DNA of 64,000 nucleotides from Candidatus Falkowbacteria bacterium RIFOXYA2_FULL_47_19 (lineage in GTDB: Bacteria > Patescibacteriota > Patescibacteriia > Patescibacteriales > UBA12075): assembly GCA_001780275.1 (NCBI GenBank), contig MFGB01000006.1:1756-65755 (forward strand), in the 5' to 3' direction. How positions within the stretch are numbered: the first letter of the stretch is position 1; every line of letters starts with the position of its first letter. The notes below the pieces were generated by a model that saw only the letters and a list, made by a program, of their open reading frames with translations, was not told the origin of the DNA and did no database searches. The position numbers and the translations under genes were made by a program. This document shows positions 59 through 46,424 of the stretch, piece after piece.

Positions 59-1999
59 CTAAATTATCTTATTTATCCAGCCGAAAGTATTCTCTAAAAT
101 GTTCAAGATTATCTGGATGATCGATTCTTTCTTTTTAGCGGTCATGAAAGTGTGCGGCTTGGAAATCACGGTATTCCCCCCCGAATCGATAGATTCGACC
201 TTAAAGCTGTAAACCAGACCTGGTTTGAATTTCGTGATAACGATCACATGCTCCTTCGTGTAGTTGTTGTTGAGGTCGGTGGCCTCGCTTAAGGTCGCGT
301 CGCCGCCGTGCACCCCTTCCTGAAAATATACCCGCGAAGTCGACGGCTCGTTGGTCAGCCAGGAGATTATGGCCTGGGTCTTATTGCTCCGGTCCACGAA
401 TACGGTTGAATCCGCTTTGATGTGCGAAATAATAGGCGGCAGATCGTCCTCTGACGTTGAGAAACGGTCCACTGTCTCGGAGGCCAGGTTTCCTTTGGCG
501 TCGATGCTTACTATCTGCACTTCATAAAAAGTGCCCGCTTCGAACTCGTTGACCTCTATCTCGTGTATGACCGATACCGCCGTGTCTTTGATGGTTTTCG
601 ATTGGTCTATGGAAAGGACATTGCCGCGATAGGGTGAAAACTTGATAGCCGAATCCGCTTCCTTATTGGTCGTCCATTTGAATACCGCCGTTTCGTTATC
701 CACTATCTGGGTAAAGTAGCTCGTGATCTCAAGCTCTTCGATCGAAGTCCGGAAAGTATAATCCCGTGATCTGGCCGTGGGACCGAAACTCGCCTTGCTT
801 CTGAGTTGAAAATGGTAAAGGGTGTCAGGTGCCAGATTATATAAAGTAACTTCATGCTCCCTGGTCTGCTCTTCGGAATCGCCGGTTATCTGGAGATAGG
901 GCTCCGCCGCCCCGGGGTTGTATCTGTCTTCAGGTGCGAAGGCCACCAGTGAATTGGCCGTAATATCGGTTCGCCAACCGATAGTAGCCTGGGTCGCGCT
1001 GACGTCGATATCCGGAGCCCCGGACATAACCGGCACCGGCAAAAGGCCTGATAGCTTATCGAACGAATCGATCGTGGTTAAAGGGTCCTGCCCTAATTCA
1101 TTCAATGATATTTCGGGAAAAAGACGGCCGAAAAATTCTAATATCCGCGCTGACGTATCTTCGGGTTCTGGCTCTGGCTCGGGCTCCTCTTCTTCCTCGG
1201 GGGTGGAGGTCGCTTCTTCAACAAGCCCTTCCGTCGTGGTAAAGATAAAATTTTCAGAGTAACCGGCGTTCCCCCAGGTATCGCTCGATAAAGCGCGGAA
1301 ATTATAACGTTGTCCCGGCGTAAGATTAATGAGGACAACGGCGTGTTCCGCAACCTCCTCCCAATGTCCGTACGTATTGCCGTATGACGCAGTCTGACCG
1401 TACTCGATAAAGCTTGTCGCCTCTTCGTCTGTCTGCCAAGTAATCCGGGCCGAATCTTCCGATACCGTATCGACGGCAACATTGGAAATTACAGGCGGGA
1501 TTTTATCGGTCTTGTCTATGATCAGTATTCCGCCGCCTCCGCCAGATGCCGGCTCTTCAGGTTCCGGTTCGGCCGGCGCTGATCCGGTCGTAAAGCTGCG
1601 CACGGTATTATCGGTGGTAATACCGCCGTTGATCCGTTCCGATCTGACTTTGTAGAAATAGGTCGTGGAATAATCAAGCCCGGTAACGTCTACGCTGTGG
1701 CTGGTCGCGTTTTTAACGCCCGTCCCCTGCTCTTTGGCTGATGAGAAACCGCTATCCGTATCGTAGACAACGAAAGAGTCCGCCGCTATATTAGTGCCCC
1801 AGGTTACGGTAGCGATATTCCCGGCAACGGATTCGCTTACGCCGGAGATTACCGGGCCGTCAAAGGTATGCATAGCGTTCTCGTAAATTATATAGCTTGT
1901 GCTTTGCATGGCGGCCATGATCCCGTCCGCTGGAGCAAAGAGCATGGCAAAAAGGATCAGAACGGAGAATATCTTTAATTTTATTTTTATGGTCATCAT
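59..1999 (-). CDS. Secreted/cell-surface protein with about five tandem fibronectin-type-III-like domains
   Basis: 646-aa ORF with an ATG start and a hydrophobic signal-like N-terminus (KIFSVLILFAMLFAPADG). An Fn3/PAP-N-like pattern recurs (TW.T...A.S.V.Y ... H.V.L..L.P.T.Y.F...S). Domains are joined by EPEPEPE and SGGGGG linkers. Confidence 0.75.
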   Translation of the reverse strand: MMTIKIKLKIFSVLILFAMLFAPADGIMAAMQSTSYIIYENAMHTFDGPVISGVSESVAGNIATVTWGTNIAADSFVVYDTDSGFSSAKEQGTGVKNATSHSVDVTGLDYSTTYFYKVRSERINGGITTDNTVRSFTTGSAPAEPEPEEPASGGGGGILIIDKTDKIPPVISNVAVDTVSEDSARITWQTDEEATSFIEYGQTASYGNTYGHWEEVAEHAVVLINLTPGQRYNFRALSSDTWGNAGYSENFIFTTTEGLVEEATSTPEEEEEPEPEPEPEDTSARILEFFGRLFPEISLNELGQDPLTTIDSFDKLSGLLPVPVMSGAPDIDVSATQATIGWRTDITANSLVAFAPEDRYNPGAAEPYLQITGDSEEQTREHEVTLYNLAPDTLYHFQLRSKASFGPTARSRDYTFRTSIEELEITSYFTQIVDNETAVFKWTTNKEADSAIKFSPYRGNVLSIDQSKTIKDTAVSVIHEIEVNEFEAGTFYEVQIVSIDAKGNLASETVDRFSTSEDDLPPIISHIKADSTVFVDRSNKTQAIISWLTNEPSTSRVYFQEGVHGGDATLSEATDLNNNYTKEHVIVITKFKPGLVYSFKVESIDSGGNTVISKPHTFMTAKKKESIIQIILNILENTFGWINKII

Positions 2000-2000
2000 G

Positions 2001-2180
2001 CTATTTTATGTACTTGCGGATAAACTTCCTCACGTCACTCTCAAAGACCCGGTAGGTTTTCCGTCCGATCCGAGCCGCCTTTAGATCGCCGGATTCTATC
2101 CAACGATAAACAGTCCTCTTGTTGACCTTGAGGACCTTGGCGACTTCTTCGATTGTGAGGATGTCATCCTTGAAAAACAC
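2001..2180 (-). CDS. Small helix-turn-helix DNA-binding protein (excisionase/MerR-type HTH), absent from the supplied ORF track
   Basis: Hand-translated 59 codons from GTG (2178-2180) to TAG (2001-2003): VFFKDDILTIEEVAKVLKVNKRTVYRWIESGDLKAARIGRKTYRVFESDVRKFIRKYIK. The stop lies 1 nt upstream of the ATG of the Fn3 gene, which implies co-transcription. Confidence 0.6.
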   Translation of the reverse strand: MFFKDDILTIEEVAKVLKVNKRTVYRWIESGDLKAARIGRKTYRVFESDVRKFIRKYIK

Positions 2181-2189
2181 TGGGGATCT

Positions 2190-2729
2190 TTCTAAGAATT
2201 ATGATTTATATATAAAAATATATTTAATAGCCGGAGTTTTATTGGTTTTTATATTAACTGACAATGAACTTAAGTTAAAAAATTAATTAAAAACAGTTGT
2301 GCACAACTAATATTATTATATAAATTTTGTACACTATTGTCAACAAATATTATCCACAATAATCAATAATATTTAAAAATATATTATATTATTTAATTAT
2401 AATCTATTTTTTTCTATATTTATTTATAATTATTAAATATCTATTATTTTAAACTATATATAATTATTATACATAATAATTTACTATTGTCACAAAAAGT
2501 ATTATTTAGTGGCTTATATTATTAATTTTTAAACAAAAAAATACGCCATTTTAAGGCGTACTCTGCTAAACTGACAAAAACACAAATTGTTTACAGTTGA
2601 TTACTTATCACGAATAGAAATTTTTACCATGAATGATTTTATATCATTTGTGTAGATTGGACGATATATTCCTAGCTCAGGAGTTGAAAAATTTACAAAA
2701 AGGCTCTTTCTTATCTGCTTCCGTTCAAA
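2190..2729. promoter_or_regulatory. Extremely AT-rich 540-bp intergenic island upstream of the HTH-Fn3 operon
   Basis: Composition is visibly far below the window average. It has no ORF and contains repeated TTGT(G/A)CAC / ATTGTC words plus a perfect 12-bp palindrome. Confidence 0.5.
2534..2560 (-). terminator. Rho-independent terminator of the giant gene
   Basis: Stem tacgcc (2542-2547) pairs with ggcgta (2555-2560) around a 7-nt loop. On the minus strand it is followed by a run of 8 U (plus-strand A run 2534-2541). Confidence 0.7.
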
Positions 2730-5700
2730 TCATTTAAATTTAATCGTCCCTTTCATCTTAAACGTCCCTCCGGGGCTGAAACGGTATTTCGGCGTAGCGC
2801 CGGAATATTCGAACGCGCCGATGTCAAAAGCGTCATCATACGGCCGCGGGTTGCCGGCGATGTCGTCAGTGACCAGGGTGATCGTCGTGCCAGCATCATA
2901 AAGAACCGAGGCGATGTCGCGGATACGGAAATCGTAGTTTTGCCAATCGACAAAGGTCGCGTCCCAGATGGCAGTTGATGAGCCTAAATTTATGGCATTG
3001 TCTCCTGTGGCATCATCTGACGCATTGAAACTGAATATATCAAAATCAGCCGAATTATTATAGTCATTGGTGTAATTATTGAATATCACATTATTCTGCG
3101 CGACCACATAGGCGGAAGAATCGACAGCGATGCCGTTGTTGTTGCCATATATTGTATTATTGTATATTTCCAAATTCCAACCCGATCCCTCCTGATAGAT
3201 CGCATGCGAATCTAAGCCGGCGCCCCAACCGAATATGACGTTATTAATAACCTTTGCTCGATTTCCCGCAACAACATTACTAAAAATAAGACCATAGTTA
3301 CTGGCCCCGCTTGTATTATTGCCGTTTATTAGGTTGTTGGAAATTTCGATTCGATATGTGATAGCGTTTCCAAAACTCAAACCGCTCATCGCCTGGCTTT
3401 GATCCGCATTGATTTGCAGACCGTCAATCCTCACGTCAGAAATTTCAACATCAAAGACATCTATTATGTTTGTTCTTACTGCATATTTCTGTGGATTCCA
3501 TATCCCCTCATGTCTTTGACTCTCACCGACTTCATCTAATAAGTACGGGGTGTAAATTTTAATGTATGACGATGTTGCTGTCGTCCATCCGAAAAAAATA
3601 ATATCTGCATCGGGAAGGTAGTCTTCACTAGTGGAAGCATAGCAAGCGACAAGGTGCGCGGTATTTGAGGCGGTCAGATCTTGATTAGGTATTAAGACTA
3701 AATCATCAACTGTGTCATTAATTAGACTATTAACTCTATTTGCCTGGTTAAGAGTCCAATCTGCTATATATTCATGTGCACGGAACACCCCGACGCTTGC
3801 CGTCGTAGTGGCGGTCGGTACGCGGCCATAGCGGTCACGGACGTCATAGGTTGATGATGAGATTCGGCTGTGGATGAAGGCGACATCGTAATAACCGTCC
3901 CCGCCGAACTGGATCACGTCGCCGACGCCGACATTGGCCGGCAGGTCGGCGGAGAAAGTAGCGATTGCGGTCGTCGATGAAATGGTTACGGTTGCGGCGC
4001 TGGAATTAAGGTCATAAGGATGGCGGCCAACGCTCCTATAAAGAATGGTCGGCCCCTCCAGAGCGCCGATGTCCCATTTGGCATCATAGCGCTCCTGGCC
4101 GTCGGCGCCGTAGATAATACTTGATCTTATCGAGCCGGTGGAAGTGCTTAATGTCAGATCATAGCCGGCGTCAATGGCCGGATTCTTGCCGCCGCCATCC
4201 GCATCATCATTTTCCGGCATCAGATGGTAGTCGTTGTTGGCGGCGTCGACGAAGGTAACGGTGGTATTGGTTTGCGAGTCGGTGCCAGGAGCAGTGGCGT
4301 CGGAGGAGATATTGTTCGACGATGAGGCACTGAAACTCCCATCATAATCAACATTGGCGTTATTTACAATATTATTTATTGCATTAGGGTAGACTAACTC
4401 TGAATGAATACCAACGCTACCAATGTCGTAAATCGTGTTATTATAAATATTTATTTCTGAGCCAGGATCCAACGAGATGTACATGCCCGCGGTGTTATAT
4501 CCATAAATTATATTGTTATATATATTGTAATCGGCAGCCTCATTCCATGCGCTAATTTCTATCCCTTGATTTCCAATATTCGAAGAATTGGTTGATTTGA
4601 TTATATTATTTGTAATTATTCTCTTTCCGCCAGCACCCGTAGAATAAATACCACTTCGATAATCATCAGATCCGCCGATTTCTATCTGTAGGCCGTCTAC
4701 AATAGCATATTTTATGTCATACAGAATTAGGCCGGAATCTGCATCGGTATAAATCCTGTATTTTGTTTCTTCCCACTTCCCGCTGTGCCGGGCTGATTCA
4801 GTCGTATAGATCTTTACATAATTATACCTTTCCGTCGTCCAACCAATAAGCCAAACCTGATTAATATCTTCATTAGTCCAAACCCCATCAATCCTCGCCA
4901 CCGCGATTGCCGGATTGCCGCCGTTGATCAGGGTGGTGGTGCCTTGGCCGTCTCCGACTTGTTCGCCCGCGACGAAGGCGCCGGAAATGTTAACCAGCAA
5001 AAACTGGTCCATTACGGCGGAGGTCGTGGTGGAGAGATGGACGAGCTGTCCGGTAGCGCCGGAGGTCTGGCCGGTCATGAGGCGGGATGACAGGGCAAAA
5101 GACTGAAAGATGCCGGTGGAGCTGGTGGCGTCGAGGACGGCGGTGCCAGTGGTGGTCAAATCGGATTGGATGGCGGCTTCCCAGGATGACAGAGTTGAGA
5201 AATCGCCGCCTGTCTCCATTACCGTGGATACGAATTCAACCGAGGCATCATCGGCGCCGATATCCCAGGTGCGGATCGGTTTGCCGTCGATGTCATCTGT
5301 GACAATCGATGACACGGACGAAGTGCCTTGGTCGATGCCAGGAGAATTGGGGGCGAGATGGTAATCTTGATTGGCTTCGTCCCAAAATATTACATTTGTA
5401 TCCTGTAATGAATCATCACCCGGCGCAGTGGCGTCCGATGAAATATTGTTGCCATAGGAAGTTATAAATCCGGCTCCGACATTGCCTAGATCAAAACTTG
5501 TTCCATTGCTTTGGACTAAATTGTTTTTTATATTCAGATAAGCAGACGTCGGCCACCCTGCTATATTTATGCCATCATAATTATTGTTAATTATCGTATT
5601 ATTATGTATTGAAATATTCGAATCTTCTGTTCCACCTGTATATATACCGACGTTGAATCCTTTAACTATGTTATTCCATACATACATCTTATTCTTGCCG

Positions 5701-8700
5701 TAAGGTAGGTCAATCCCTAATGGTCCGTCAGGTGTGATACTTGAATGTCCGTGATCGGAATAAATTAAATTATTGCTGATATAGTACTCGCCGTTATCAT
5801 GTGTGCCATGATTATCCTGAATTCCGCAATGTGCCTCTCCTGCTTCATCTAAAACACCGGTTTCTTTTAGTTGCAGGCCATCAATACGGATAGAAAGTAA
5901 CGACTGTCCAATGCTTATAACCCCAAAATAATCTTCTACGCTTATATTATATTTAGTGTCATCCCATTTGCCCGGATGCCTTTGCGATGCGCCGACCTCG
6001 CTGGATGTTACAGGCGTGAAAATCTTGATGAAATTCTGTTCGCTCGTAGCCCAGCCTTCAACCACCACCGCTTCATCATCTCCATTTGAACTCGCGTAAG
6101 CGGCGATCATTTGGACAGTGTTTGATGCGACCAGGTCGTCCGACGCTAAAACCACCCAGTCATCAACAGTATCGGAGATACCGGAATTGACGTTTTCAAC
6201 TGTTTGCGTTTCCCAATCATTCAAAGTCAAATGCGCCCGATAGATATTGAACGCCGCACTCGTGGTCGCGGTCGGCGCACGCGTGTCCCAGGCCTGGACG
6301 CTATAGACGGTTGAAGAAGAACGGCCAGTGATGAAGGCCAGATCATAATACCCGGCCCCGCCGAATTGGATCACATCCCCCACCCCGACATTATCTGCCT
6401 GCGCGGCGGAAAATGTGGCTGTCCTCGTTGACGAAGAAATCGTCACTGTGCCGGTCGAACCAAGCGAAGCCGTGTCATTGCCGACGCTACGATACTGTTT
6501 GGCCGCGGTTTCATCTGCGCCAATGTCCCAGCCAAGGTCGTCGGGGTTGCGGAGAGCGCCGTCAATGTCGGTACTAAAACTTGATATTACGTCCAAAGTC
6601 GAGCTTGAGCTGTAATCAAAACCGGCGTTTCTCGCACCCGCGTCGCTTTCGGCCAGATGGAAATCCTCGGCATTGGCCGTTGTAGAAACGAAAGAAAAAA
6701 CCTGATTGACGAGCGTGTTGGCGCCCCCGGTCGGAGTATCGCTTATGTCGGTGGCATTATGGGTCGTCGCGGCCGCGAAAGCACCGTTAAAAGGATCGGT
6801 GGAAGAGGCGATAATATTATTTATCGCGATAACTGTCCCGTTATCCTGTTCAATGCCCCGCCCGAAATTATAGATCGTATTGTTATAAAAATAGCCGGTG
6901 CCAAGATCGCAATTGAAAAATATTCCGCCGTATAACCAAAAGCCGGTAGTATAGATAATATTATTAAAAGCCTTGACCAAGCGGCAATTCGTAAATTTTA
7001 CTCCGCCGGAACCGAGTTGCGTATTGGTGTAGCCGACAGCCAGGTTGGAGGAATATTCAAACTCTCCTAAATCGTTATAAGAGTCAAAATTCGTTATAGC
7101 GTCCCAGGTTCCGTTAGCCGTGCTTACGAGCTGGAGTCCCTGGACTTTCGCGTAATCTTCCACGATATTCAAGGGCTCGTCAATTGAGACCAAGCGGTAT
7201 TTTGAATCGGAAAAAACGCCGTTGTGCCGGGCCGCGTCGGCCGTATAAATTCTTATATAATTATCATTATCCGTCGTCCAGCCGGTAATTGAAACCGCTT
7301 GTGTGTCCGAGGCGCTCCATTCTCCGTCTATCATCGCGACCGCGATCGGAGAGGCGCCGAGAGAGTCGCCGGTACCCGTGACGGTCCACATATTCGTGGT
7401 TCCGCCGGTATAGCGGAACTGCGTTCCGGAAGCGGCGATTAAGGGGCTTGAGGTGCCGGTGATCCCGTCCACCAGTATCTGGTCCGTGGTCGTGGCCACG
7501 ACCACGACGTTAATGCCGGTGTCAGACCCGCCGACATAAACGTCCAGCGAATTATTTTCGTTCAAAGTGCCGGTTTTCCAGCCCGAGAAAACCCGGGTCG
7601 TGGAAGCCGAGAGATTTGATTCCACTAGGTTTTCCCAGTCAAAAAGACGGCTATAGTCGCGATTGGCGCAGTCCCCGCCGGCCGAATTCGTTTCGCAGAT
7701 CGTGGACACGAATTCTTGCCCGACTTCGTCGGCGCCGATGTCAAAAGCCGCTCCGCGGGCCGTATAATCGATATCATATTGGACGGGCGCGGAAGCATCC
7801 CAAAAAACCGTGGAAGTGCCGGCGTTTATAGCGGCTGTGTCATCGGACGCCAGGTGAAAATCATAATTTGCCGCGTCCAGAAACGACACGCTTGTTAATG
7901 ATTTAGAATCATCGCCTTCCGCGTCATTCAAATTAGAGATATTGTTGCCTGAAGCGCCGTAAGTGCCGCGGAATCCATAGATCTCGCAATCCTGCGCGAT
8001 ATTATTGAAGGCGTAAACAGTAAGTGTGGTTTGATTATAAAAGCATTCGCGGGCGGAAAACACGGTGTTATTATAAATATAGCCGGTCGAATCGCCTCTG
8101 ATCCTGATGCCGATATTGTTATCAAAGTTAAAAACAATATTATTAGTTATGTAAATCCTGGCATAACGATTATCGCCCGCAACGCCCAAGCCAATGCCGG
8201 AATTGTAAGCTGAACTGTTAACGGCTTGGACAATATTATCTCCAAGATAAATTTCATTTTGCCCGGCAGTTAATGTTCCGTTTACCACTATTCCATATCT
8301 ATAATTTCCGCTGATCGTTCTTTTTACCTGCAATCCGTAAACCCGCACATGATCCTCTGATATATTGACCGATGCCGAAGCGTCGGATGTGCTTAAAACG
8401 TACTTAGCATCATCCCACTTCCCCTTGTGCCTCCCGTAAGTATCCGTCGGATCGGTCCAGATTTTAATATAGGTCGTGGTAGCGGTCGTCCAACCAAGAA
8501 TTTCAACCGCCGTTGTGTCGTCCGTGCCGCCGGTAGAGCGGCAAGTGGCGACGGCGATGGCCGAGTCGCCGGCCGCCTGGGCGCCGGAAAGGGTGAAATA
8601 CGAGGCGCTGTTGCAAGTGGTGTTCGTGTACCAAACGTCATTCGCCTGTTTCGCCGTCCCGCCGGCGATCGACCGGAGGAGGATCTGGGAGGAAGAAGCG

Positions 8701-9023
8701 GCATGGACAAGAGTGGCCGTATTGCCGGTCTGGTATACTCCGCTCCGGCAGAGATAGACCGCCGTGTTGTCCGCGATCCCGCCCGTCCGCGTGCCGGAAA
8801 AGACCTGGGTGGTGGTGGCCGCGAGATCCGACTGCACCGCCGCCTCCCAGGCCGCCAAGCTCGTATAATCGGTACCGACGGCGTTGTCGGGATCAATTAT
8901 GGAGATGAATTCGGTGGTTGCTTTTGACGGGCTTGGAAATAATAAAAAAATACCGATTGACAACAAAAGGGAAATTAGAAATTGGAAATTAGAAATTGGA
9001 AATTTAAAACTATACTTTCTCAT
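2730..9023 (-). CDS. Giant (2097 aa) secreted right-handed parallel beta-helix repeat protein built from five tandem ~400-aa modules
   Basis: One uninterrupted ORF with an ATG start and a signal-like N-terminus (LISLLLSIGIFLLFPSPSKA). Dense NN(I/V)(I/V)..N beta-helix turns are present. Each module ends in D(Y/F)HL....(I/A)DAG ... (W/F)DIGA(D/L/F)(E/D). Confidence 0.85.
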   Translation of the reverse strand: MRKYSFKFPISNFQFLISLLLSIGIFLLFPSPSKATTEFISIIDPDNAVGTDYTSLAAWEAAVQSDLAATTTQVFSGTRTGGIADNTAVYLCRSGVYQTGNTATLVHAASSSQILLRSIAGGTAKQANDVWYTNTTCNSASYFTLSGAQAAGDSAIAVATCRSTGGTDDTTAVEILGWTTATTTYIKIWTDPTDTYGRHKGKWDDAKYVLSTSDASASVNISEDHVRVYGLQVKRTISGNYRYGIVVNGTLTAGQNEIYLGDNIVQAVNSSAYNSGIGLGVAGDNRYARIYITNNIVFNFDNNIGIRIRGDSTGYIYNNTVFSARECFYNQTTLTVYAFNNIAQDCEIYGFRGTYGASGNNISNLNDAEGDDSKSLTSVSFLDAANYDFHLASDDTAAINAGTSTVFWDASAPVQYDIDYTARGAAFDIGADEVGQEFVSTICETNSAGGDCANRDYSRLFDWENLVESNLSASTTRVFSGWKTGTLNENNSLDVYVGGSDTGINVVVVATTTDQILVDGITGTSSPLIAASGTQFRYTGGTTNMWTVTGTGDSLGASPIAVAMIDGEWSASDTQAVSITGWTTDNDNYIRIYTADAARHNGVFSDSKYRLVSIDEPLNIVEDYAKVQGLQLVSTANGTWDAITNFDSYNDLGEFEYSSNLAVGYTNTQLGSGGVKFTNCRLVKAFNNIIYTTGFWLYGGIFFNCDLGTGYFYNNTIYNFGRGIEQDNGTVIAINNIIASSTDPFNGAFAAATTHNATDISDTPTGGANTLVNQVFSFVSTTANAEDFHLAESDAGARNAGFDYSSSSTLDVISSFSTDIDGALRNPDDLGWDIGADETAAKQYRSVGNDTASLGSTGTVTISSSTRTATFSAAQADNVGVGDVIQFGGAGYYDLAFITGRSSSTVYSVQAWDTRAPTATTSAAFNIYRAHLTLNDWETQTVENVNSGISDTVDDWVVLASDDLVASNTVQMIAAYASSNGDDEAVVVEGWATSEQNFIKIFTPVTSSEVGASQRHPGKWDDTKYNISVEDYFGVISIGQSLLSIRIDGLQLKETGVLDEAGEAHCGIQDNHGTHDNGEYYISNNLIYSDHGHSSITPDGPLGIDLPYGKNKMYVWNNIVKGFNVGIYTGGTEDSNISIHNNTIINNNYDGINIAGWPTSAYLNIKNNLVQSNGTSFDLGNVGAGFITSYGNNISSDATAPGDDSLQDTNVIFWDEANQDYHLAPNSPGIDQGTSSVSSIVTDDIDGKPIRTWDIGADDASVEFVSTVMETGGDFSTLSSWEAAIQSDLTTTGTAVLDATSSTGIFQSFALSSRLMTGQTSGATGQLVHLSTTTSAVMDQFLLVNISGAFVAGEQVGDGQGTTTLINGGNPAIAVARIDGVWTNEDINQVWLIGWTTERYNYVKIYTTESARHSGKWEETKYRIYTDADSGLILYDIKYAIVDGLQIEIGGSDDYRSGIYSTGAGGKRIITNNIIKSTNSSNIGNQGIEISAWNEAADYNIYNNIIYGYNTAGMYISLDPGSEINIYNNTIYDIGSVGIHSELVYPNAINNIVNNANVDYDGSFSASSSNNISSDATAPGTDSQTNTTVTFVDAANNDYHLMPENDDADGGGKNPAIDAGYDLTLSTSTGSIRSSIIYGADGQERYDAKWDIGALEGPTILYRSVGRHPYDLNSSAATVTISSTTAIATFSADLPANVGVGDVIQFGGDGYYDVAFIHSRISSSTYDVRDRYGRVPTATTTASVGVFRAHEYIADWTLNQANRVNSLINDTVDDLVLIPNQDLTASNTAHLVACYASTSEDYLPDADIIFFGWTTATSSYIKIYTPYLLDEVGESQRHEGIWNPQKYAVRTNIIDVFDVEISDVRIDGLQINADQSQAMSGLSFGNAITYRIEISNNLINGNNTSGASNYGLIFSNVVAGNRAKVINNVIFGWGAGLDSHAIYQEGSGWNLEIYNNTIYGNNNGIAVDSSAYVVAQNNVIFNNYTNDYNNSADFDIFSFNASDDATGDNAINLGSSTAIWDATFVDWQNYDFRIRDIASVLYDAGTTITLVTDDIAGNPRPYDDAFDIGAFEYSGATPKYRFSPGGTFKMKGTIKFK
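2808..4055 (-). repeat. Giant-protein module 5 (type B, begins LYRSVGRHPYDLNSSAATVTISS, ends FDIGAFE)
   Basis: DIGAFE codons lie at 2808-2825. Confidence 0.7.
4056..5246 (-). repeat. Giant-protein module 4 (type A, begins VEFVSTVMETGGDFSTLSSWEAAIQSDL, ends WDIGALE)
   Basis: DIGALE codons lie at 4056-4073. Confidence 0.7.
5247..6509 (-). repeat. Giant-protein module 3 (type B, begins YRSVGNDTASLGSTGTVTISS, ends WDIGADD)
   Basis: DIGADD codons lie at 5247-5264. The N-terminal ~190 aa align along their length with module 5 (VGVGDVIQFGG.GYYD.AFI ... RAH....DW ... DTVDD ... IKI(F/Y)TP ... SQRH.G.W). Confidence 0.7.
6510..7715 (-). repeat. Giant-protein module 2 (type A, begins EFVSTICET..DYSRLFDWENLVESNL, ends WDIGADE)
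   Basis: DIGADE codons lie at 6510-6527. Confidence 0.7.
7725..8918 (-). repeat. Giant-protein module 1 (type A, begins TEFISIIDP..DYTSLAAWEAAVQSDL, ends FDIGADE)
   Basis: Boundaries were placed on the DIGADE codons at 7725-7742, read directly from the sequence. Confidence 0.7.
8971..9005. repeat. Left arm of the inverted repeat bracketing the four-helix-bundle gene (gaaattagaaattggaaattagaaattggaaattt)
   Basis: The reverse complement of 9392-9418 is gaaattgaaaattagaaattggaaatta. This arm lies inside the first codons of the giant gene, where it encodes FKFPISNFQFLIS. Confidence 0.7.
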
Positions 9024-9391
9024 TTTATATTATTACAACAAGCTTTTATGTAAGAGTTTAATTTTTTATGCATTTTTTCAAGATTAGACAGCATTTCATT
9101 GTAGATCGGTTTTTGGATCAATTTTCTTTTTTGCAAAAGCAAAGTCCAATGTTTTGATTCTAAAAGCGAGCCGCGAGAATTATAATAAAACTTGATTTTA
9201 TCTTTATGATGATAACGTCCATAGCCCTCGGCGATGTTTGCTCCGACAGAATCAATGGCACAAATAAATTGATCTCCGATAATTTTTTTCGTCTGCCAAT
9301 CCATTTTTTCAAAAACGCTCCACGCTAAATCAGATGACTCAATTGCCAATTTATATATTTCCAAATTGCCTAATTTTATATAATCGGGCAT
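9020..9391 (-). CDS. Four-helix-bundle protein (23S rRNA intervening-sequence protein family)
   Basis: The sequence LEIYKLA......W.VF......K.IGDQ...A..SVGANIAEGYGRYH.KD.I.FY..SRGSL.ES is typical of the family. The track start at 9400 is a TTG; the first ATG is at 9389-9391. The TGA stop overlaps the giant gene's ATG (ATGA). Confidence 0.8.
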   Translation of the reverse strand: MPDYIKLGNLEIYKLAIESSDLAWSVFEKMDWQTKKIIGDQFICAIDSVGANIAEGYGRYHHKDKIKFYYNSRGSLLESKHWTLLLQKRKLIQKPIYNEMLSNLEKMHKKLNSYIKACCNNIK

Positions 9392-14259: not shown

Positions 14260-14284
14260 ATTTATTGTATTAGTGTTTAATATC

Positions 14285-14312
14285 TAGTATTTAGCTGTCC
14301 GGCTAAATACTA
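14285..14312. promoter_or_regulatory. 11-bp inverted repeat in the divergent rmuC/uvrA promoter region
   Basis: tagtatttagc-N6-gctaaatacta, followed by ctaaatac/aaaatac word repeats. Confidence 0.3.
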
Positions 14313-14518
14313 AATACAAAATACTATATACCTTATATTACCAATTCTCTACGATTACCGCAACCGAACGCTAAAAATAGCCTAATTTCCATAATTTTTA
14401 TTTTGTAGCGCACCGCTCTTGCCACAACCCGATATTTAATGTATAATAAACTCCGTTTACAATCACATAATTCGCTATCGGCTGATTGGCGCTTATTTGC
14501 CGATCAGTATTATATTTT

Positions 14519-17389
14519 ATGCCAAAAACCAATTCTAACACCATAAAAATAAAAGGCGCCCGGGTGCATAATCTGAAAAACGTAAGTCTGGAGATCCCGC
14601 GCGACAAGTATGTCGTCTTTACCGGACTCTCCGGCTCCGGCAAATCTTCTCTGGCCTTTGACACGATTTATGCGGAGGGGCAAAGGCGCTACGTTGAATC
14701 TCTTTCGGCCTACGCCCGGCAATTTATCGGGCTTATGGACAAACCGGACGTGGATTCGATCGAAGGCTTAAGTCCGGCGATCTCGATCGACCAGAAAACG
14801 GCTCCGCATAATCCCCGTTCCACGGTCGGCACGATCACGGAAATATACGACTACATGCGCCTGCTCTTTGCCCGCGTCGGCATTCCGCATTGCCCGGAAT
14901 GCGGCCGGAAAATAAAGCAATACACGGTCGACGAGATAGTCAATCAGATTTCGGCGGAATACGCCGATAAGGAGACCACGATCCTCTCGCCCGTGATCAA
15001 GGACAAAAAAGGCGAACACAAGAATACGCTGCCCGGGATAAAAAAAGCCGGTTACGGCCAGGTCCGGTTCGATAATAAGACCTACGCGCTTGACGAATTC
15101 GAGGACATGACCGTAAATAAAAAATTAAAACATAATCTGGAAATAGTGATCGACCGGCTTAAAATTTCTAAAAATAAGGAAGATATGGCGAGGCTGTCCG
15201 AGGCCATAGAAAGCGCCCTGGACCTGTCTAACGGACTGGTAACGGTCTTGGGGGGCGATAACAGCGGTAAAAAAGAAGACGCAAAGACTTTCTCCCGGCT
15301 ATTCGCCTGCCCTGATTGCGGCATCAGCCTCCCCGAATTGGAACCTCGCAACTTTTCTTTTAACTCCCCCCACGGCGCCTGCGAGGAATGCTCCGGCTTG
15401 GGCACGAAGCTGGAGATCGATTCGGAATTGATCCTTAATCCGAATCTGACGATCGCCCAAGGCGCGATCCGGCCCTGGGCCCATAACACCGCGACCGGCC
15501 AGACCTGGCTCATGCGCATTCTCGGCACGGTCGCCAACAAGAACGGTTTCGACCTGAACACCCCCCTGAAGAATCTAACGAAAAAACAGATGGATATCGT
15601 TCTTTACGGCACCGGCGACAAGAACTATAATGTCGACTACGAAAGCGAACGTTTCTCTGGCGAGCTGACCACCGAATTCGAGGGCGTTATTCCTAATCTC
15701 GAGCGCCGCTACGGAGCGACCGAATCGGATTACGTGCGCAAGGAGATCGAACAATACATGCGCGTCCTGGTATGCCCGAAATGCGGCGGCCAACGCCTGA
15801 AAAAAGAAATGCTATCCGTTAAAGTAGCCGAACTGTCGATTTCCGATATAGCCACCATGACGATAGAGTCGACCAAAGAATTTTTTACGGGGCTGGAAAA
15901 TTCGAAAACCCTTACCGTCCGGGAAAAGAAGATCGCGTCCCAGATCATCAAAGAGATAAAGGCCAGGCTTGAATTCCTTTTAAACGTCGGTTTGAATTAT
16001 CTGACGCTTGACCGGTCCGCCAATACCCTCTCCGGCGGCGAAGCCCAGCGCATCCGGCTGGCTAACCAGATCGGCACCTCTCTCGTTGGGGTGCTTTATA
16101 TATTGGACGAACCTTCGATCGGGCTCCATCAGCGCGATAACAACAAGCTTATCGATACTTTGAAAAAACTCCGGGATATCGGCAATACGGTGATCGTGGT
16201 CGAGCACGATGAGGCTACGATGGAAGCTGCCGACTGGATCGTCGACGTCGGTCCCGGCGCCGGCGAACATGGCGGCAAGATCGTCGTATCCGGAACGCCG
16301 GCTAAAATAAAAAACACAGCCGCTTCTTTGACCGGACAATACCTGTCAGGAAAAAAATCAATCCCGATCCCGAAAAAATACCGCCCCGGCAACGGCCAGG
16401 CGATCCGTATCTTGGGCGCTTCCGAACACAATCTCAAGAATATCGACGTTTCCTTCCCCCTGGGCAAGTTCATCGCTATTACCGGCGTATCCGGCTCCGG
16501 TAAGTCGACCCTTATGACCGATATCCTGGCCCGGGCGTTAAACCAAAAATTCTACCGGGCGAAGACCGAACCGGGAAAGCACAAATCGATCGAAGGCTTA
16601 AGACAGATAAATAAGGTCATCAATATCGACCAGTCTCCGATCGGCCGCACCCCCCGCTCCAACCCGGCTACCTATACGGGAGCTTTTACTCCTATCCGCG
16701 AGCTCTTCGCGAGCTTGCCGGAATCTAAGATCAAGGGTTATAAAGCGGGCCGCTTTTCGTTCAATGTCGTCGGCGGACGCTGCGAGGCCTGCGCCGGCGA
16801 CGGTATGGTAAAGATCGAAATGCAATTCCTGCCCGACGTTTACGTCGAATGCGAAGTCTGTCATGGCCACCGCTACAATAAAGAAGCTCTCGATATTTAT
16901 TACAAGGACAAGAATATTTCCGAGGTTCTCAACATGACCGTAGAGGAGGCCATGACCTTCTTTAAAAATATACCGGCAATCTTTCAGAAACTCGATACTT
17001 TAAACGAGGTCGGTCTGGGCTACATAAAATTGGGCCAATCGGCCACGACTCTCTCCGGCGGCGAAGCGCAGCGGATCAAGCTTGCGACCGAACTTTCCCG
17101 CCGGGCCACCGGACAAACTCTTTATATATTGGACGAACCCACGACGGGCCTGCATTTCGATGATATTAAGCGTCTTTTGGACGTTTTGAACCAGCTGGTC
17201 GACAAAGGCAATACGGTCCTGATCATCGAACATAATCTTGATGTGATAAAATCCGTCGATTGGGTGATCGACCTCGGACCCGAAGGCGGAGATAAGGGCG
17301 GCTATATCGTGGCCGAAGGCACGCCCAAAGATATTGCCAAAGTAAAAAACAGCTATACCGGGCAGTATTTAAGCAAAGTATTGAAATAA
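14519..17389 (+). CDS. uvrA: Excinuclease ABC subunit A
   Basis: Two ABC ATPase modules ([12 protein letters not shown] and [10 protein letters not shown]; LSGGEAQR twice). Zinc-finger Cys pairs CPECG, CP.CGG and C.AC.G are present. The likely start is the ATG at 14519 ([19 protein letters not shown]). Confidence 0.95.
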
Positions 17390-17414
17390 TCGCGTCAAAT
17401 TATTTAATGCCATA

Positions 17415-17446
17415 AGAGGCGCCCGGCGGGGCGTCTCTTTGTTTTT
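17415..17446 (+). terminator. uvrA rho-independent terminator
   Basis: 10-bp stem agaggcgccc/ggggcgtctct. Its G19-T34 position is a wobble only on the plus strand. It is followed by tttgttttt. Confidence 0.75.
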
Positions 17447-17450
17447 AAAC

Positions 17451-17498
17451 AAAAAAAGGCCCGCCTATTGGACCAGATTGTTCTGGTAATAAGCGGGC
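17451..17498 (-). terminator. Minus-strand rho-independent terminator, convergent with the uvrA terminator
   Basis: 11-bp outer stem 17459-17469/17488-17498 plus inner stem accaga/tctggt. The single non-Watson-Crick position is C.A on the plus strand but G.U on the minus strand. A 7-U run follows on the minus strand. Confidence 0.7.
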
Positions 17499-18445
17499 GG
17501 TGCGTCACGTTTTTAGCGACGCTAGATATATTTTCCACGGCGTTGGCCGTAGGTCTTTCGGTACATTCATACCTCCTCTCCGGCGCGCGCAGCGGGCGAC
17601 CGGTGTTGGGTTGATGGAAAGGTGGGCGATCCGGCCGCAGAGCGGGAGAGAGCCCTTGGGGCCCCCTTGCCTCATGGGCGGATCACCCGGACGGCCGCGT
17701 TATTGGACGCAACTACGGCCATTTGCCTGGCGGGCGAAAAACCGGGGCTGCAGGGGTCATCTTTTCTCCTTTTTCAAGGGATGGGCGAGGGGTGCGGAAG
17801 TGTCTCCCGATACCGGGGGGCCGCGCGCGTCCGGCGGCGGCCGATGGGGGGACGTCTCTAGCCGCGCCCCCGCCCTTGGGAAATCCAAGCCGTACGGGGG
17901 CCGGAGTCGGGCCGATATTCGGCGCGGCCGACTCATTTTTTTTGACCAAAAGGCTTGGATACGCCGACCTACCGCCGAACATTGTGGGCGGTCAAAAGCC
18001 GACGCTCCTCATAGGTATTCCCGGTTTCAATGTCCCGAAACGAATCGGAACTCCGCCGAAGAACCCTATAGGGAGTGGAGCGCTGGCGACCAGGACGGGC
18101 CGGCCAACTTGATCACGGGCAGAAAAATCGGCAACGAGTGAAGGCCACGTTTCTGTTCACAATAACGGTACCGTCCCGAATGGGACGCAAATAATAGGTC
18201 ATCCCGGATCTCCTTTCCTTCCCTCAAGGGCGCCCTTAGGGGAAAAAATATTATGATAAACCCCGTTATCCGGTCACGCCGCCTTCAAAGAAGCGGCCGC
18301 GGATGAACGGAGATACCACCGCAAGACAAAGAGCGAATCGTAGAAACGCGACGTAGAGACGCGATTAATCGCGTCTCTACGTCGCGTTTTCATATTTAAC
18401 GCAGAATTTTATCTTAGCAGATATTAAAAATCTTTCAAGGTACGT
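17499..18445 (-). ncRNA. Candidate large (~0.95 kb) structured noncoding RNA of unknown class
   Basis: The locus is GC-rich with only overlapping Arg/Gly/Pro-rich ORFs in several frames. Many helices are visible (see findings). It is flanked by a promoter at 18452-18480 and a terminator at 17451-17498. Strand assignment is tentative. Confidence 0.45.
18344..18389. repeat. Perfect 46-nt palindrome (aaacgcgacgtagagacgcgat|taatcgcgtctctacgtcgcgttt)
   Basis: Read directly from the sequence. It gives a 21-bp stem and belongs to the GTAGAGACG palindrome family. Confidence 0.85.
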
Positions 18446-18451
18446 TTCTGT

Positions 18452-18480
18452 ATAATAACACACACAAGAATATTTGTCAA
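18452..18480 (-). promoter_or_regulatory. Sigma-70-type promoter: TTGACA, 17-nt spacer, TATTAT
   Basis: The minus strand reads ttgacaaatattcttgtgtgtgttattat. It lies between the CDF-gene terminator and the GC-rich locus. Confidence 0.55.
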
Positions 18481-18531
18481 TAGTAAATTAAATATTTAAA
18501 CACAATTGGCTAAAATTCAATTAATCTATAT

Positions 18532-18557
18532 AAAAAAACCCCGCGTATTACGGGGTT
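18532..18557 (-). terminator. Terminator of the CDF transporter gene
   Basis: Stem aaccccg/cggggtt with a 7-nt loop, followed by a U run on the minus strand. Confidence 0.75.
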
Positions 18558-18564
18558 ATAGTTT

Positions 18565-19344
18565 TTAATGACAGCATTCTTCATGCTTTGTTCCGAAACA
18601 AAAACCGGATAAAAACAGTAATGTGCCGGTAATGACAGAATACTGGCCGAACGAAAGACCGGCCACGAAAACCAGAATAAATGATAGCAATCTATAGCGC
18701 CGGGTCTCATTTAAAAATTTAGAAAATAGCCGTCCCGAAAGGAAAAATATGTATCCGGCGAGCAATATCGAAATATACGGGTCGGCCTTTGTCCAGCCGG
18801 AAAAAAATATAATCACAGCAGACGCGATCACGGCGAGCGAACAGAAAAGATCGGATAGAACATGCGCTGATAAAACCTCGTGCGTCGAGCTCCGATGCTT
18901 TTCCGGTGCCGCGCCCAAGATCTTATGCACCAGATAGTTTCCGGCCGCGCCCGCCATAGCAACGAGCATTACCGGCCAGACGATAAAGATCGCCGGGTTA
19001 ATCAACCGCTCCTGAGCCTCGCTTAAAACATGCAAACCGCCGATGAACAAAAGCAGAGTGCCGAGACAAGCGAACAAACCGCGGATAAATCCTTCTTTCC
19101 GTTTAGTAATTTTAAGGCAGATGCAGGCGATAATGAGAGAGGCGATGTTGACGATAAGATCGGATGACGCGTGAAAGGTGTCCGCCCGCAAGGCTAAGTT
19201 ATTCGAAAACCAAACCGCGATAAGCTGAAACAAAAGTATTCCCAGGGTTATGCCGACCGCCCGCTTATATCTTTCGATCTCGCAATGGCAGTCTTTTTCG
19301 TCTCCCGTATCGGGAAACCGGCAATGATCGTAATGACCGTTCAT
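18565..19344 (-). CDS. Cation diffusion facilitator (CDF)-like metal efflux membrane protein lacking the usual cytoplasmic C-terminal domain
   Basis: CDF TM2/TM5 signatures ALRADTFHASSDL and HVLSDLF are present. Both termini are Cys/His-rich: HYDHCRFPDTGDEKDCHC at the N-terminus and KHEECCH at the C-terminus. Confidence 0.65.
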   Translation of the reverse strand: MNGHYDHCRFPDTGDEKDCHCEIERYKRAVGITLGILLFQLIAVWFSNNLALRADTFHASSDLIVNIASLIIACICLKITKRKEGFIRGLFACLGTLLLFIGGLHVLSEAQERLINPAIFIVWPVMLVAMAGAAGNYLVHKILGAAPEKHRSSTHEVLSAHVLSDLFCSLAVIASAVIIFFSGWTKADPYISILLAGYIFFLSGRLFSKFLNETRRYRLLSFILVFVAGLSFGQYSVITGTLLFLSGFCFGTKHEECCH

Positions 19345-19429
19345 ATTCGCCTCCTGGCCGCTTTTCAGGCGCTTTCGAAAAAAGAGAGGCCGCTCACATG
19401 CGAACGGCCCTGATAATTGCTTTAGAATG

Positions 19430-20488: not shown

Positions 20489-20599
20489 CTCTTTCCTCCG
20501 TGGAAACTTTGGATTTTTGTAAAGATCTTTTTGAATTTATATACTCAAAGTATCTTATTTTTTAGAAAAAAAGTCAATCGCAAATAACAAATAAAGGCT

Positions 20600-46222: not shown

Positions 46223-46350
46223 GGTTTTTCGCGTAAAATTTGCCGATACCGATATTTAAGGTCCATTCTTCTTTGAATCTTCTTCAAAATGGTTCAAATC
46301 TCTGAACACGCAAAATTATACCGGCCCTGCGGCGGGCCGTTATAATTTTG

Positions 46351-46424
46351 TGCGCCCAGATGGACTTGAACCATCGACCCCAGGCTTATAAGGCCTGTGC
46401 TCTAACCAACTGAGCTATGGGCGC
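46351..46424 (-). tRNA. tRNA-Ile with anticodon UAU
   Basis: Hand-folded 74-nt cloverleaf: GCGCCCA TA GCTC AGTTGGTTA GAGC A CAGGC CTTATAA GCCTG GGGTC GATGG TTCAAGT CCATC TGGGCGC A. Positions 34-36 read TAT. Confidence 0.85.

Follow-up and report, generated by a model that had tools for sequence, protein, structure and literature searches.

Does the markedly GC-rich interval of about 1 kb that separates two genes of Candidatus Falkowbacteria bacterium RIFOXYA2_FULL_47_19, an uncultivated bacterium from groundwater, encode a protein, an RNA, or neither? The interval lies at positions 17447-18480 of the 64,000-nt stretch of contig MFGB01000006.1 that is analysed here (the window), and it is flanked by the 3' ends of uvrA (plus strand) and of a cation-efflux (CDF) gene (minus strand). 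In GenBank and IMG, positions 17500-18141 of the plus strand are annotated as a 'hypothetical protein' of 213 aa (175 aa in the GenBank version, OGF27675.1, A2303_00400), and an original prediction, made from the letters of the window, proposed a free-standing structured RNA. The explanation that we favour, to which we give about an even chance of being correct, is that this element is an autonomous minus-strand gene of ~1.0 kb, of which the functional product is the RNA itself, possibly with a dual function. Bacteria rarely have large, free-standing structured RNAs, and for most of the known classes no function has been assigned. The small genomes of the Candidate Phyla Radiation (CPR) leave little room for 1 kb of noncoding sequence, and a large free-standing structured RNA from the CPR is not described in the literature searched, nor is one known to us.

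Block-wise conservation in a related genome

Across species-representative genomes, the CDF protein matches a single relative, a Falkowbacteria MAG (L011), of which the UvrA protein has 98% amino-acid identity with UvrA of the window and in which the neighbouring genes have 78% identity at four-fold degenerate sites. The element is present in L011 at 8183-9215, with ~84% identity and many indels. In the pairwise alignment of the window element with L011, to which the identities given below for parts of the element refer, the conservation is distributed in blocks along the minus strand. Block A (18201-18340, 90-95% identity) is followed by the body of a small open reading frame (ORF), mini-ORF1 (78-85%), then by block B (17801-18100, 88-100%, including an 87-nt central stretch with one mismatch), by a hypervariable segment (17681-17800, 53-62%) and by block C (17500-17700, 82-95%). 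The conserved blocks, of ~140, ~300 and ~220 nt, are therefore separated by a near-neutral stretch and by a hypervariable stretch. Block B differs from L011 by four single-base indels, so that a protein frame, whether on the plus or the minus strand, cannot account for its conservation. The hypervariable segment was also considered as the target of a diversity-generating retroelement, which is rejected, as no template-like second copy exists in the window.

Transcription signals at both ends

The minus-strand promoter TTGACA-17-TATTAT, which had been proposed from the window alone, is borne out at 18480-18452 as a sigma-70-type promoter with an extended -10 TG, with matches at 11 of its 12 positions. 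L011 shows no change in either hexamer and a single one in the spacer; the sequence just upstream of the promoter is 42-78% identical. Transcription would start near 18445. The promoter and the first ~45 nt of the predicted transcript, which form an AT-rich 5' leader (18401-18445, minus strand), are 85-90% identical in the two species, and this leader holds a second, weaker promoter-like site, TTGAAA-16-TAAGAT (18438-18411, minus strand).

The other end of the element is marked by an intrinsic terminator on the same strand (17447-17498), which consists of a two-tier hairpin (17498-17459) with one G.U pair and of a U7 run (17457-17451). The terminator is ~85% identical in L011, where the pair 17484/17475 is changed from A-U to C-G by compensatory substitution, the G.U pair at 17492/17465 is changed into G-C, and the loop has a 19-nt insertion. 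The earlier claim of a minus-strand terminator with G.U as its sole non-canonical pair is thus in agreement with these data, and the pairing is kept in the relative. The features of a Rho-independent terminator are all present: a GC-rich hairpin, a U-run, and pairing that is maintained in L011. Since a second species has retained the promoter as well as the terminator, with covariation in the latter, the sequences support a free-standing transcription unit on the minus strand. In this respect the element has, at the level of sequence signals, the own promoter and terminator that are expected of a dual-function RNA. The strand and the terminator are well supported.

The genes on either side end outside these signals. 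The stop codon of uvrA is at 17389 and its terminator at 17414-17446 (plus strand); the CDF gene extends from 19344 to 18565 on the minus strand, with its terminator at 18557-18537. In L011 an extra DUF3141 paralogue separates the CDF gene from the element, and 150 nt that the window lacks are inserted between the terminator of the element and that of uvrA (L011 ~9216-9370). This insertion carries the palindrome CCTGCCTGCCGGCAGGCAGG and AT-rich, CGAAAA-like repeats, and it has the look of a small repeat element. The surroundings of the unit thus differ between the two genomes, and the unit retains a promoter and a terminator of its own in both.

Between the leader and block A lies a perfect 46-nt palindrome centred on TTAA (18344-18389, without strand), as had been noted before. 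In L011 just the inner 24 nt survive, with one mismatch, and the region 18420-18321 is 55-72% identical, so the palindrome appears from the alignment to be a variable hairpin outside the conserved core. The 30 nt that form its core (18353-18382, CGTAGAGACGCGATTAATCGCGTCTCTACG) recur with 100% identity in cyanobacteria, as intergenic palindromes on plasmids of Calothrix and Kovacikia, and the copy on the Calothrix plasmid sits between convergent genes. The core may be a widespread short palindromic element, or the identity may be due to convergence.

Absence of a conserved long reading frame

The element tops the whole window in GC content, as the original prediction had recognised. The content peaks at 0.68 in 300-nt windows at 17600-17900, compared with a mean of 0.465 (sd 0.07) over the 64 kb, and values of at least 0.62 occur in just 0.7% of the windows. 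The second GC-richest spot, at 8400-8900 (up to 0.66), lies within a giant ORF of 2097 aa (2730-9023, minus strand), and there too ORFs of ~165 aa overlap on both strands. A replication origin was rejected for the GC-rich element, as no GC-skew switch is seen.

The ORFs of the element are rich in Arg, Gly and Pro and overlap one another in three plus frames, as had been described, together with several minus frames, not the single one that had been reported. The case for a protein is that of the annotated plus-strand gene of 213 aa, as the 213-codon frame does exist and is called by gene callers in several assemblies. When L011 is read in this frame, however, 10 of the 213 codons are met by a gap or a stop, and the long ORFs of L011 have other positions and other lengths than those of the window. 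No long reading frame is conserved between the two, since 1-nt indels within the conserved blocks break it. The protein-homology check that had been proposed for this DNA finds the 213-aa ORF only as itself among 5.8 billion clusters and 1.84 billion representatives (the latter searched exhaustively), and Pfam and NCBIfam give no match for any of the ORFs that were compared with them, which are nine from the window and the mini-ORF1 orthologue of L011. A plus-strand promoter is also lacking in the interval, the sole plus-strand match of a scan of 17000-19000 being located inside uvrA. Together with the Arg/Gly/Pro-rich composition and the overlapping ORFs in all frames, this makes the plus-strand protein gene extremely improbable. 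The annotated 175/213-aa hypothetical protein is probably spurious, because it has no homologues and because its frame is broken in the sister species. It shares the biased composition and the lack of homologues with spurious ORFs that lie over GC-rich noncoding DNA; unlike such ORFs over junk, the DNA of the element is conserved in blocks and bracketed by transcription signals.

Shine-Dalgarno-AUG modules and mini-ORFs

On the strand of the predicted RNA, the sequence AGGAG occurs four times where 0.4 occurrences are expected, a count that none of 500 shuffles reaches. Three Shine-Dalgarno (SD) boxes (AGGAG or GGAGG) stand 5-7 nt before the ATG of a mini-ORF, of 29, 15 and 14 codons, respectively; a fourth AGGAG is predicted to be paired inside the long hairpin 18075-18006 of block B. 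These three SD+ATG sites in the 1-kb locus compare with 20 non-genic sites in the ~127 kb that make up both strands elsewhere in the window. In L011 each SD+ATG pair is kept together with its stop codon, and the sole multi-base indels inside the ORFs are of 6 and 9 nt. All three modules are on the minus strand.

The first module (18113-18214) has its SD box, AGGAG, at 18214-18210 and its ATG at 18202, and it opens mini-ORF1, of 29 codons (MTYYLRPIRDGTVIVNRNVAFTRCRFFCP). Its SD box, ATG and stop are kept in L011, where the frame has an in-frame insertion of 6 nt, and as read from the alignment there are ~4 synonymous and 8 non-synonymous changes. Reading through the UGA of mini-ORF1 as a sense codon was considered and rejected, since a 1-nt deletion just past the stop in L011 breaks the extended frame. 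The second module has AGGAG at 17770-17766 and ATG at 17760, followed by mini-ORF2, of 15 codons (17760-17713, MTPAAPVFRPPGKWP). Mini-ORF2 has 18 codons in L011, owing to an in-frame insertion of 9 nt, and shares the start, the GKWP ending and the stop; it is nearly unalignable save for the first two residues (MT) and this ending. The third module (17522-17576) has GGAGG at 17576-17572 and ATG at 17566, and its mini-ORF3 has 14 codons (MYRKTYGQRRGKYI); both differences from L011 are non-synonymous and none is synonymous, again as read from the alignment. The two linkers of low conservation are thereby taken up by mini-ORF1 and mini-ORF2, and block C contains mini-ORF3.

The original prediction had named two candidate ORFs near the 3' end and set both aside as unconvincing, and it had overlooked the mini-ORFs that start at 18202 and 17760. 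This dismissal does not stand, as three SD+ATG modules are conserved and enriched. The two 3' candidates fare differently: the start of the 14-codon ORF (ATG 17566, well spaced) is kept in L011, whereas the badly spaced ATG at 17570, which opens the 21-aa ORF (17505-17570), is ACG there. The same ATG-to-ACG change converts a G.U pair into G-C in the hairpin GGUAYGAAUGUACC. The pattern of changes makes the ribosome-start signals look selected, and the peptide sequences do not. Given the conservation and the enrichment of these modules, an RNA that has a dual function or carries mini-ORFs is a better fit than one that is purely noncoding.

The same modules would also be expected if the transcript were a tricistronic mRNA, in which micro-proteins of 29, 15 and 14 aa are the functional products and blocks A-C are structured 5' or intercistronic control regions. 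The three correctly spaced, enriched and conserved modules are in agreement with this proposal, as are the multi-base indels, both of which are multiples of three with the stops retained, and the fact that in mini-ORF3 just the properly spaced ATG is conserved. The ORFs are, however, the least conserved parts of the element (78-85% for the body of mini-ORF1 and 53-62% for the region of mini-ORF2, against 88-100% for blocks), and the ratio of 4 synonymous to 8 non-synonymous changes in mini-ORF1 is approximately neutral, with both changes in mini-ORF3 being non-synonymous. Open frames, moreover, persist easily in GC-rich DNA, and the peptide of mini-ORF1, the sole one of sufficient length for a scan, matches no protein family in the version of either species. 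Functional micro-proteins are for these reasons considered rather unlikely.

Predicted folding and strand asymmetry

The helices that had been listed for the RNA are all present. Folding z-scores of the minus strand range from -3 to -5.5, as compared with a mean of -0.7 (sd 1.7) for background 300-nt windows of the contig, and they differ between the strands: -5.35 on the minus and -2.26 on the plus strand for the core (18330-17500), -2.9 and -1.0 for 18112-17955, and -5.5 and -1.7 for 17700-17447. This asymmetry is also seen when both species are considered, as the two-species alifold z is -8.0 on the minus and -3.1 on the plus strand, and as independent folds of the two sequences have 137 pairs in common on the minus and 71 on the plus strand. 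The description of the locus as densely self-complementary holds to a moderate extent, with z-scores that lie in the tail of the background and not beyond it.

The predicted hairpins are distributed over the three blocks. In block A, the inner stem of a nested hairpin (18310-18263) is altered in L011 by a cluster of three substitutions and by the loss of one base, and the prediction there is still a hairpin. A U/C-rich strand of this block would, by prediction, pair with a purine tract that directly precedes the first SD box. Block B is predicted to consist of five local hairpin domains, in which several changes keep pairing only on the minus strand (G.U to G-C at 18107, 18091 and 17961, and G-C to G.U at 18023). 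In block C, the long hairpin 17688-17624 has a compensatory apical pair, 17659/17655, changed from C-G to U-A, and it is followed by the hairpins 17604-17581, 17574-17561, 17552-17534 and 17522-17502. When the best-conserved local hairpins and the terminator are considered, at least eight one-sided changes keep pairing only on the minus strand and one or two only on the plus strand; examples of the minus-only exchanges between G-C and G.U are found at 18242, 18107, 18091, 18023, 17961, 17681, 17569 and 17492.

Internal repetition adds little to this picture. The 9-mer GCCCTTRGG does recur three times in the interval, as reported, with four copies in the whole window compared with 0.9 expected, a count that one of 100 shuffles reaches; as one of the three copies is not kept in the relative, the repeat is given little weight. 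A three-fold internal repetition of modules was also rejected, because just short, chance-level repeats are found.

Evidence that weighs against an RNA gene

Several observations count against the explanation that we favour, and they bear at the same time on two rivals. With respect to the folding, the background z-scores reach a minimum of -4.5, so that the interval lies in the tail of the distribution and not outside it. The tally of minus-consistent changes in 'robust' hairpins is post hoc, and a test on the minimum-free-energy structure of the whole molecule, or on local stems of Watson-Crick pairs only, gives 17 minus-only, 14 plus-only, 24 broken on both and 2 compensatory changes, which is not significant; on the whole-molecule structure, changes at paired positions disrupt the pairing as often as they preserve it. 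The full sequences number two and come from close relatives, with one strain fragment (L003) in addition. The internal fold of the RNA is thus plausible but unproven. The reading of the locus at the scale of an 'ornate large RNA' is not shown by two sequences and a strain fragment with a non-significant whole-structure substitution test. The broader proposal of a free-standing structured RNA is retained as regards the minus-strand unit, the absence of a conserved long frame and the absence of a known family, with a conserved fold as a plausible feature.

These points are also what could be said for neutral GC-rich junk, in which many helices form by chance: the whole-structure test is not significant, and the z-scores are within the extremes of the background. 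Chance helices and chance signals are nevertheless very improbable as an explanation of the whole locus and are already disfavoured, since block identities of 88-100% stand beside internal stretches of 53-72% and four-fold sites of 78%, and since the promoter is conserved, the terminator covaries and AGGAG is enriched approximately tenfold.

With respect to the conservation, the intergenic regions 14260-14518, 19345-19429 and 20489-20599 are also 85-94% identical between the window and L011, so the conservation of the blocks is not unusual for noncoding DNA here, which presumably has a function. That intergenic DNA exceeds the four-fold sites (78%) suggests strong constraint on noncoding DNA in these small genomes. 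Because of the high identity of these other regions, the four-fold sites, which served at first as the neutral yardstick, are judged a less fair control than the variable stretches inside the locus (53-72%). The element is, furthermore, absent beside uvrA in relatives with 81-88% UvrA identity (L012-L014 and L016-L024), which means that the unit is young or dispensable, and no functional partner gene is conserved adjoining it.

Such findings could be accounted for if the interval were conserved DNA with no RNA function of its own, either a remnant of the insertion that brought CDF and DUF3141 or a cluster of protein-binding sites, made mosaic by recombination between strains. In favour of this are the equal conservation of the other intergenic regions, the presence of the palindrome core in unrelated bacteria, the absence of the whole ~3.3-kb block (element, CDF and DUF3141) from L013 and L016, which are otherwise syntenic, and the switch of the L003 sequence near 17845 from 100% to ~94% identity, with alleles in common with L011, which suggests recombination. 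A function at the level of DNA would not, however, predict strand-asymmetric folding and structure conservation or a strand-specific enrichment of SD-AUG sites, and the promoter and the covarying terminator bracket exactly the conserved part. We therefore regard a purely DNA-level conservation as distinctly unlikely.

Distribution and variation

As far as seen in the genomes compared, the unit appears to be confined to one shallow lineage with two closely related species. A scan of metagenome contigs with peptide patterns, back-translated from the pseudo-protein alignment of the element, finds only a contig of the same organism, and scans of viral contigs find no homologue. A search in distant mode gives no match among phages and, among plasmids, only the palindrome core.

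The region downstream of uvrA has other contents in the more distant relatives. A GC-elevated ORF at this position in L018 looks like a real membrane protein. In L016 (UvrA 81% identical), an unrelated unit of ~190 nt without ORFs occupies the same position (7000-7215, minus strand of the locus), with a TTGACA-17-TATATT promoter-like motif (by eye) and a strong terminator; it has no Rfam match and no similarity to the element. In L012, positions 1874-6520 encode a UvrA-like protein of 1548 aa, in which the UvrA_inter and UvrA_DNA-bind domains are duplicated, either by fusion or duplication or as an artefact of assembly or gene calling.

Within the species of the window, the locus is 100% identical in nine metagenome contigs, and a tenth (L003) diverges near its end. 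Independent assemblies break within the element, at ~18360 in the palindrome (L008 and L010) and within 17660-17860 (L003, L004 and L015). L003 ends in a third allele, which has the sequence of the window as far as ~17845 and thereafter differs from it at six sites, several of which are in common with L011, and the identity thereby drops abruptly from 100% to ~94%. One change that L003 and L011 have in common, a U-to-G substitution with deletion of an A, converts the U-A closing pair of the hairpin 17810-17791 into G-C. The breaks and the third allele suggest allelic heterogeneity or recombination in the hypervariable segment; alternatively, they may be due to GC-rich DNA having been covered poorly.

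Comparison with known RNA families

The Rfam covariance search that had been advised for this locus, with GOLLD, ROOL, OLE, HEARO and raiA included, matches no family to the element. At gathering thresholds, Rfam 15 finds in the whole window just two tRNAs, both elsewhere. At E<=10, the region 17300-18650 gives the palindrome, which mimics a miRNA stem, and terminator look-alikes outside the unit, all at chance level; the matches of the L011 copy are at chance level as well, and none is common to both species. These searches agree with the earlier statement that RNase P, tmRNA, SRP, 6S and group I or II introns are not recognisable here.

Several candidates were rejected one by one. For RNase P there is a resemblance to GGAAAG..UCCGGG, yet no covariance-model match, and ARAGORN finds no tmRNA. 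A protein sponge of the CsrB/RsmZ type is not indicated, as GGA is not enriched (18 occurrences compared with 17.8 expected). A leader-peptide attenuator is not compatible with the locus either, as the terminator is followed by the convergent 3' end of uvrA and by no gene on the same strand. With the leader-peptide attenuators of Rfam (Leu, Phe and Thr) the element nonetheless has in common a short SD-AUG ORF beside alternative hairpins and a terminator, and an ORF of which the sequence matters less than its translation, which is putative for the element; it differs from them in having no downstream structural gene, and the weak Rfam leader matches fall on the CDF terminator, outside the unit.

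Dual-function RNAs, which are both coding and regulatory, include RNAIII of Staphylococcus aureus, which encodes the 26-aa delta-haemolysin, SgrS/SgrT and SR1/SR1P. The element resembles the RNAIII-type RNAs in being a free-standing gene with its own promoter and terminator, in being highly structured (here as predicted), in its SD-preceded small ORFs and in a conservation that lies mainly in the RNA rather than in the peptide. It has no sequence or covariance-model similarity to them, and it differs from RNAIII in being about twice as long, in having three mini-ORFs instead of one and in its CPR host. With the large 'ornate' RNAs OLE, GOLLD, ROOL, HEARO and raiA (PMC5737381, PMC12286853) the element has in common the scale of 0.6-1 kb, the GC-rich multi-hairpin character, the free-standing position and the lack of an assigned function. 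Even at E<=10 none of their covariance models is matched, and a wide distribution together with strong covariation is what defines these classes, whereas the element is known in two close species. To our knowledge, none of the definitions of these classes includes embedded SD-AUG mini-ORFs. By analogy, the element would be nearest in logic to the RNAIII-type dual-function RNAs and in scale to the ornate large RNAs, as a member of no known family.

The window also carries, at 46350-46424 on the minus strand, a tRNA-Ile with the anticodon UAU (TAT in DNA), which adjoins a tRNA-Val(GAC). Such a tRNA-Ile is unusual, as the AUA codon is normally read in bacteria by a tRNA of which the CAU anticodon carries lysidine.

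Proposed mechanism and significance

If, as we infer, the unit is transcribed, its internal fold is real, its mini-ORFs are translated and it has a role in the cell, transcription would start near 18445 and stop at the intrinsic terminator 17498-17447. The transcript would then consist of hairpin-dense, GC-rich blocks A (18340-18201), B (18100-17801) and C (17700-17500) and of two poorly conserved linkers. Its function would reside in the folded blocks, which would serve as a scaffold or offer a surface for binding or regulation, and ribosomes or 30S subunits would be loaded at the SD-AUG modules. When the short ORFs, the sequences of which are not constrained, are translated, this would determine how the neighbouring domains fold, how accessible they are or how stable; such a link between the mini-ORFs and the fold is suggested by analogy with dual-function RNAs such as RNAIII.

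A more far-reaching version is that the element represents a previously undescribed class of ornate RNA of ~1 kb in one Falkowbacteria (CPR) lineage, with three folded domains, ribosome-loading mini-ORFs and a hypervariable, population-polymorphic linker, and with an activity that is gated by its own translation. We hold this version tentatively, with the chances leaning against it.

The significance is limited by the fact that the unit is known from just two close species. At minimum, the analysis corrects a database entry for a 'hypothetical protein' that is almost certainly not a protein. If both the fold and its coupling to the mini-ORFs are true, the element would provide an RNA of ~1 kb that has defined ends and is amenable to experiments, and it would represent a new architecture, in which structured domains are interleaved with translated spacers.

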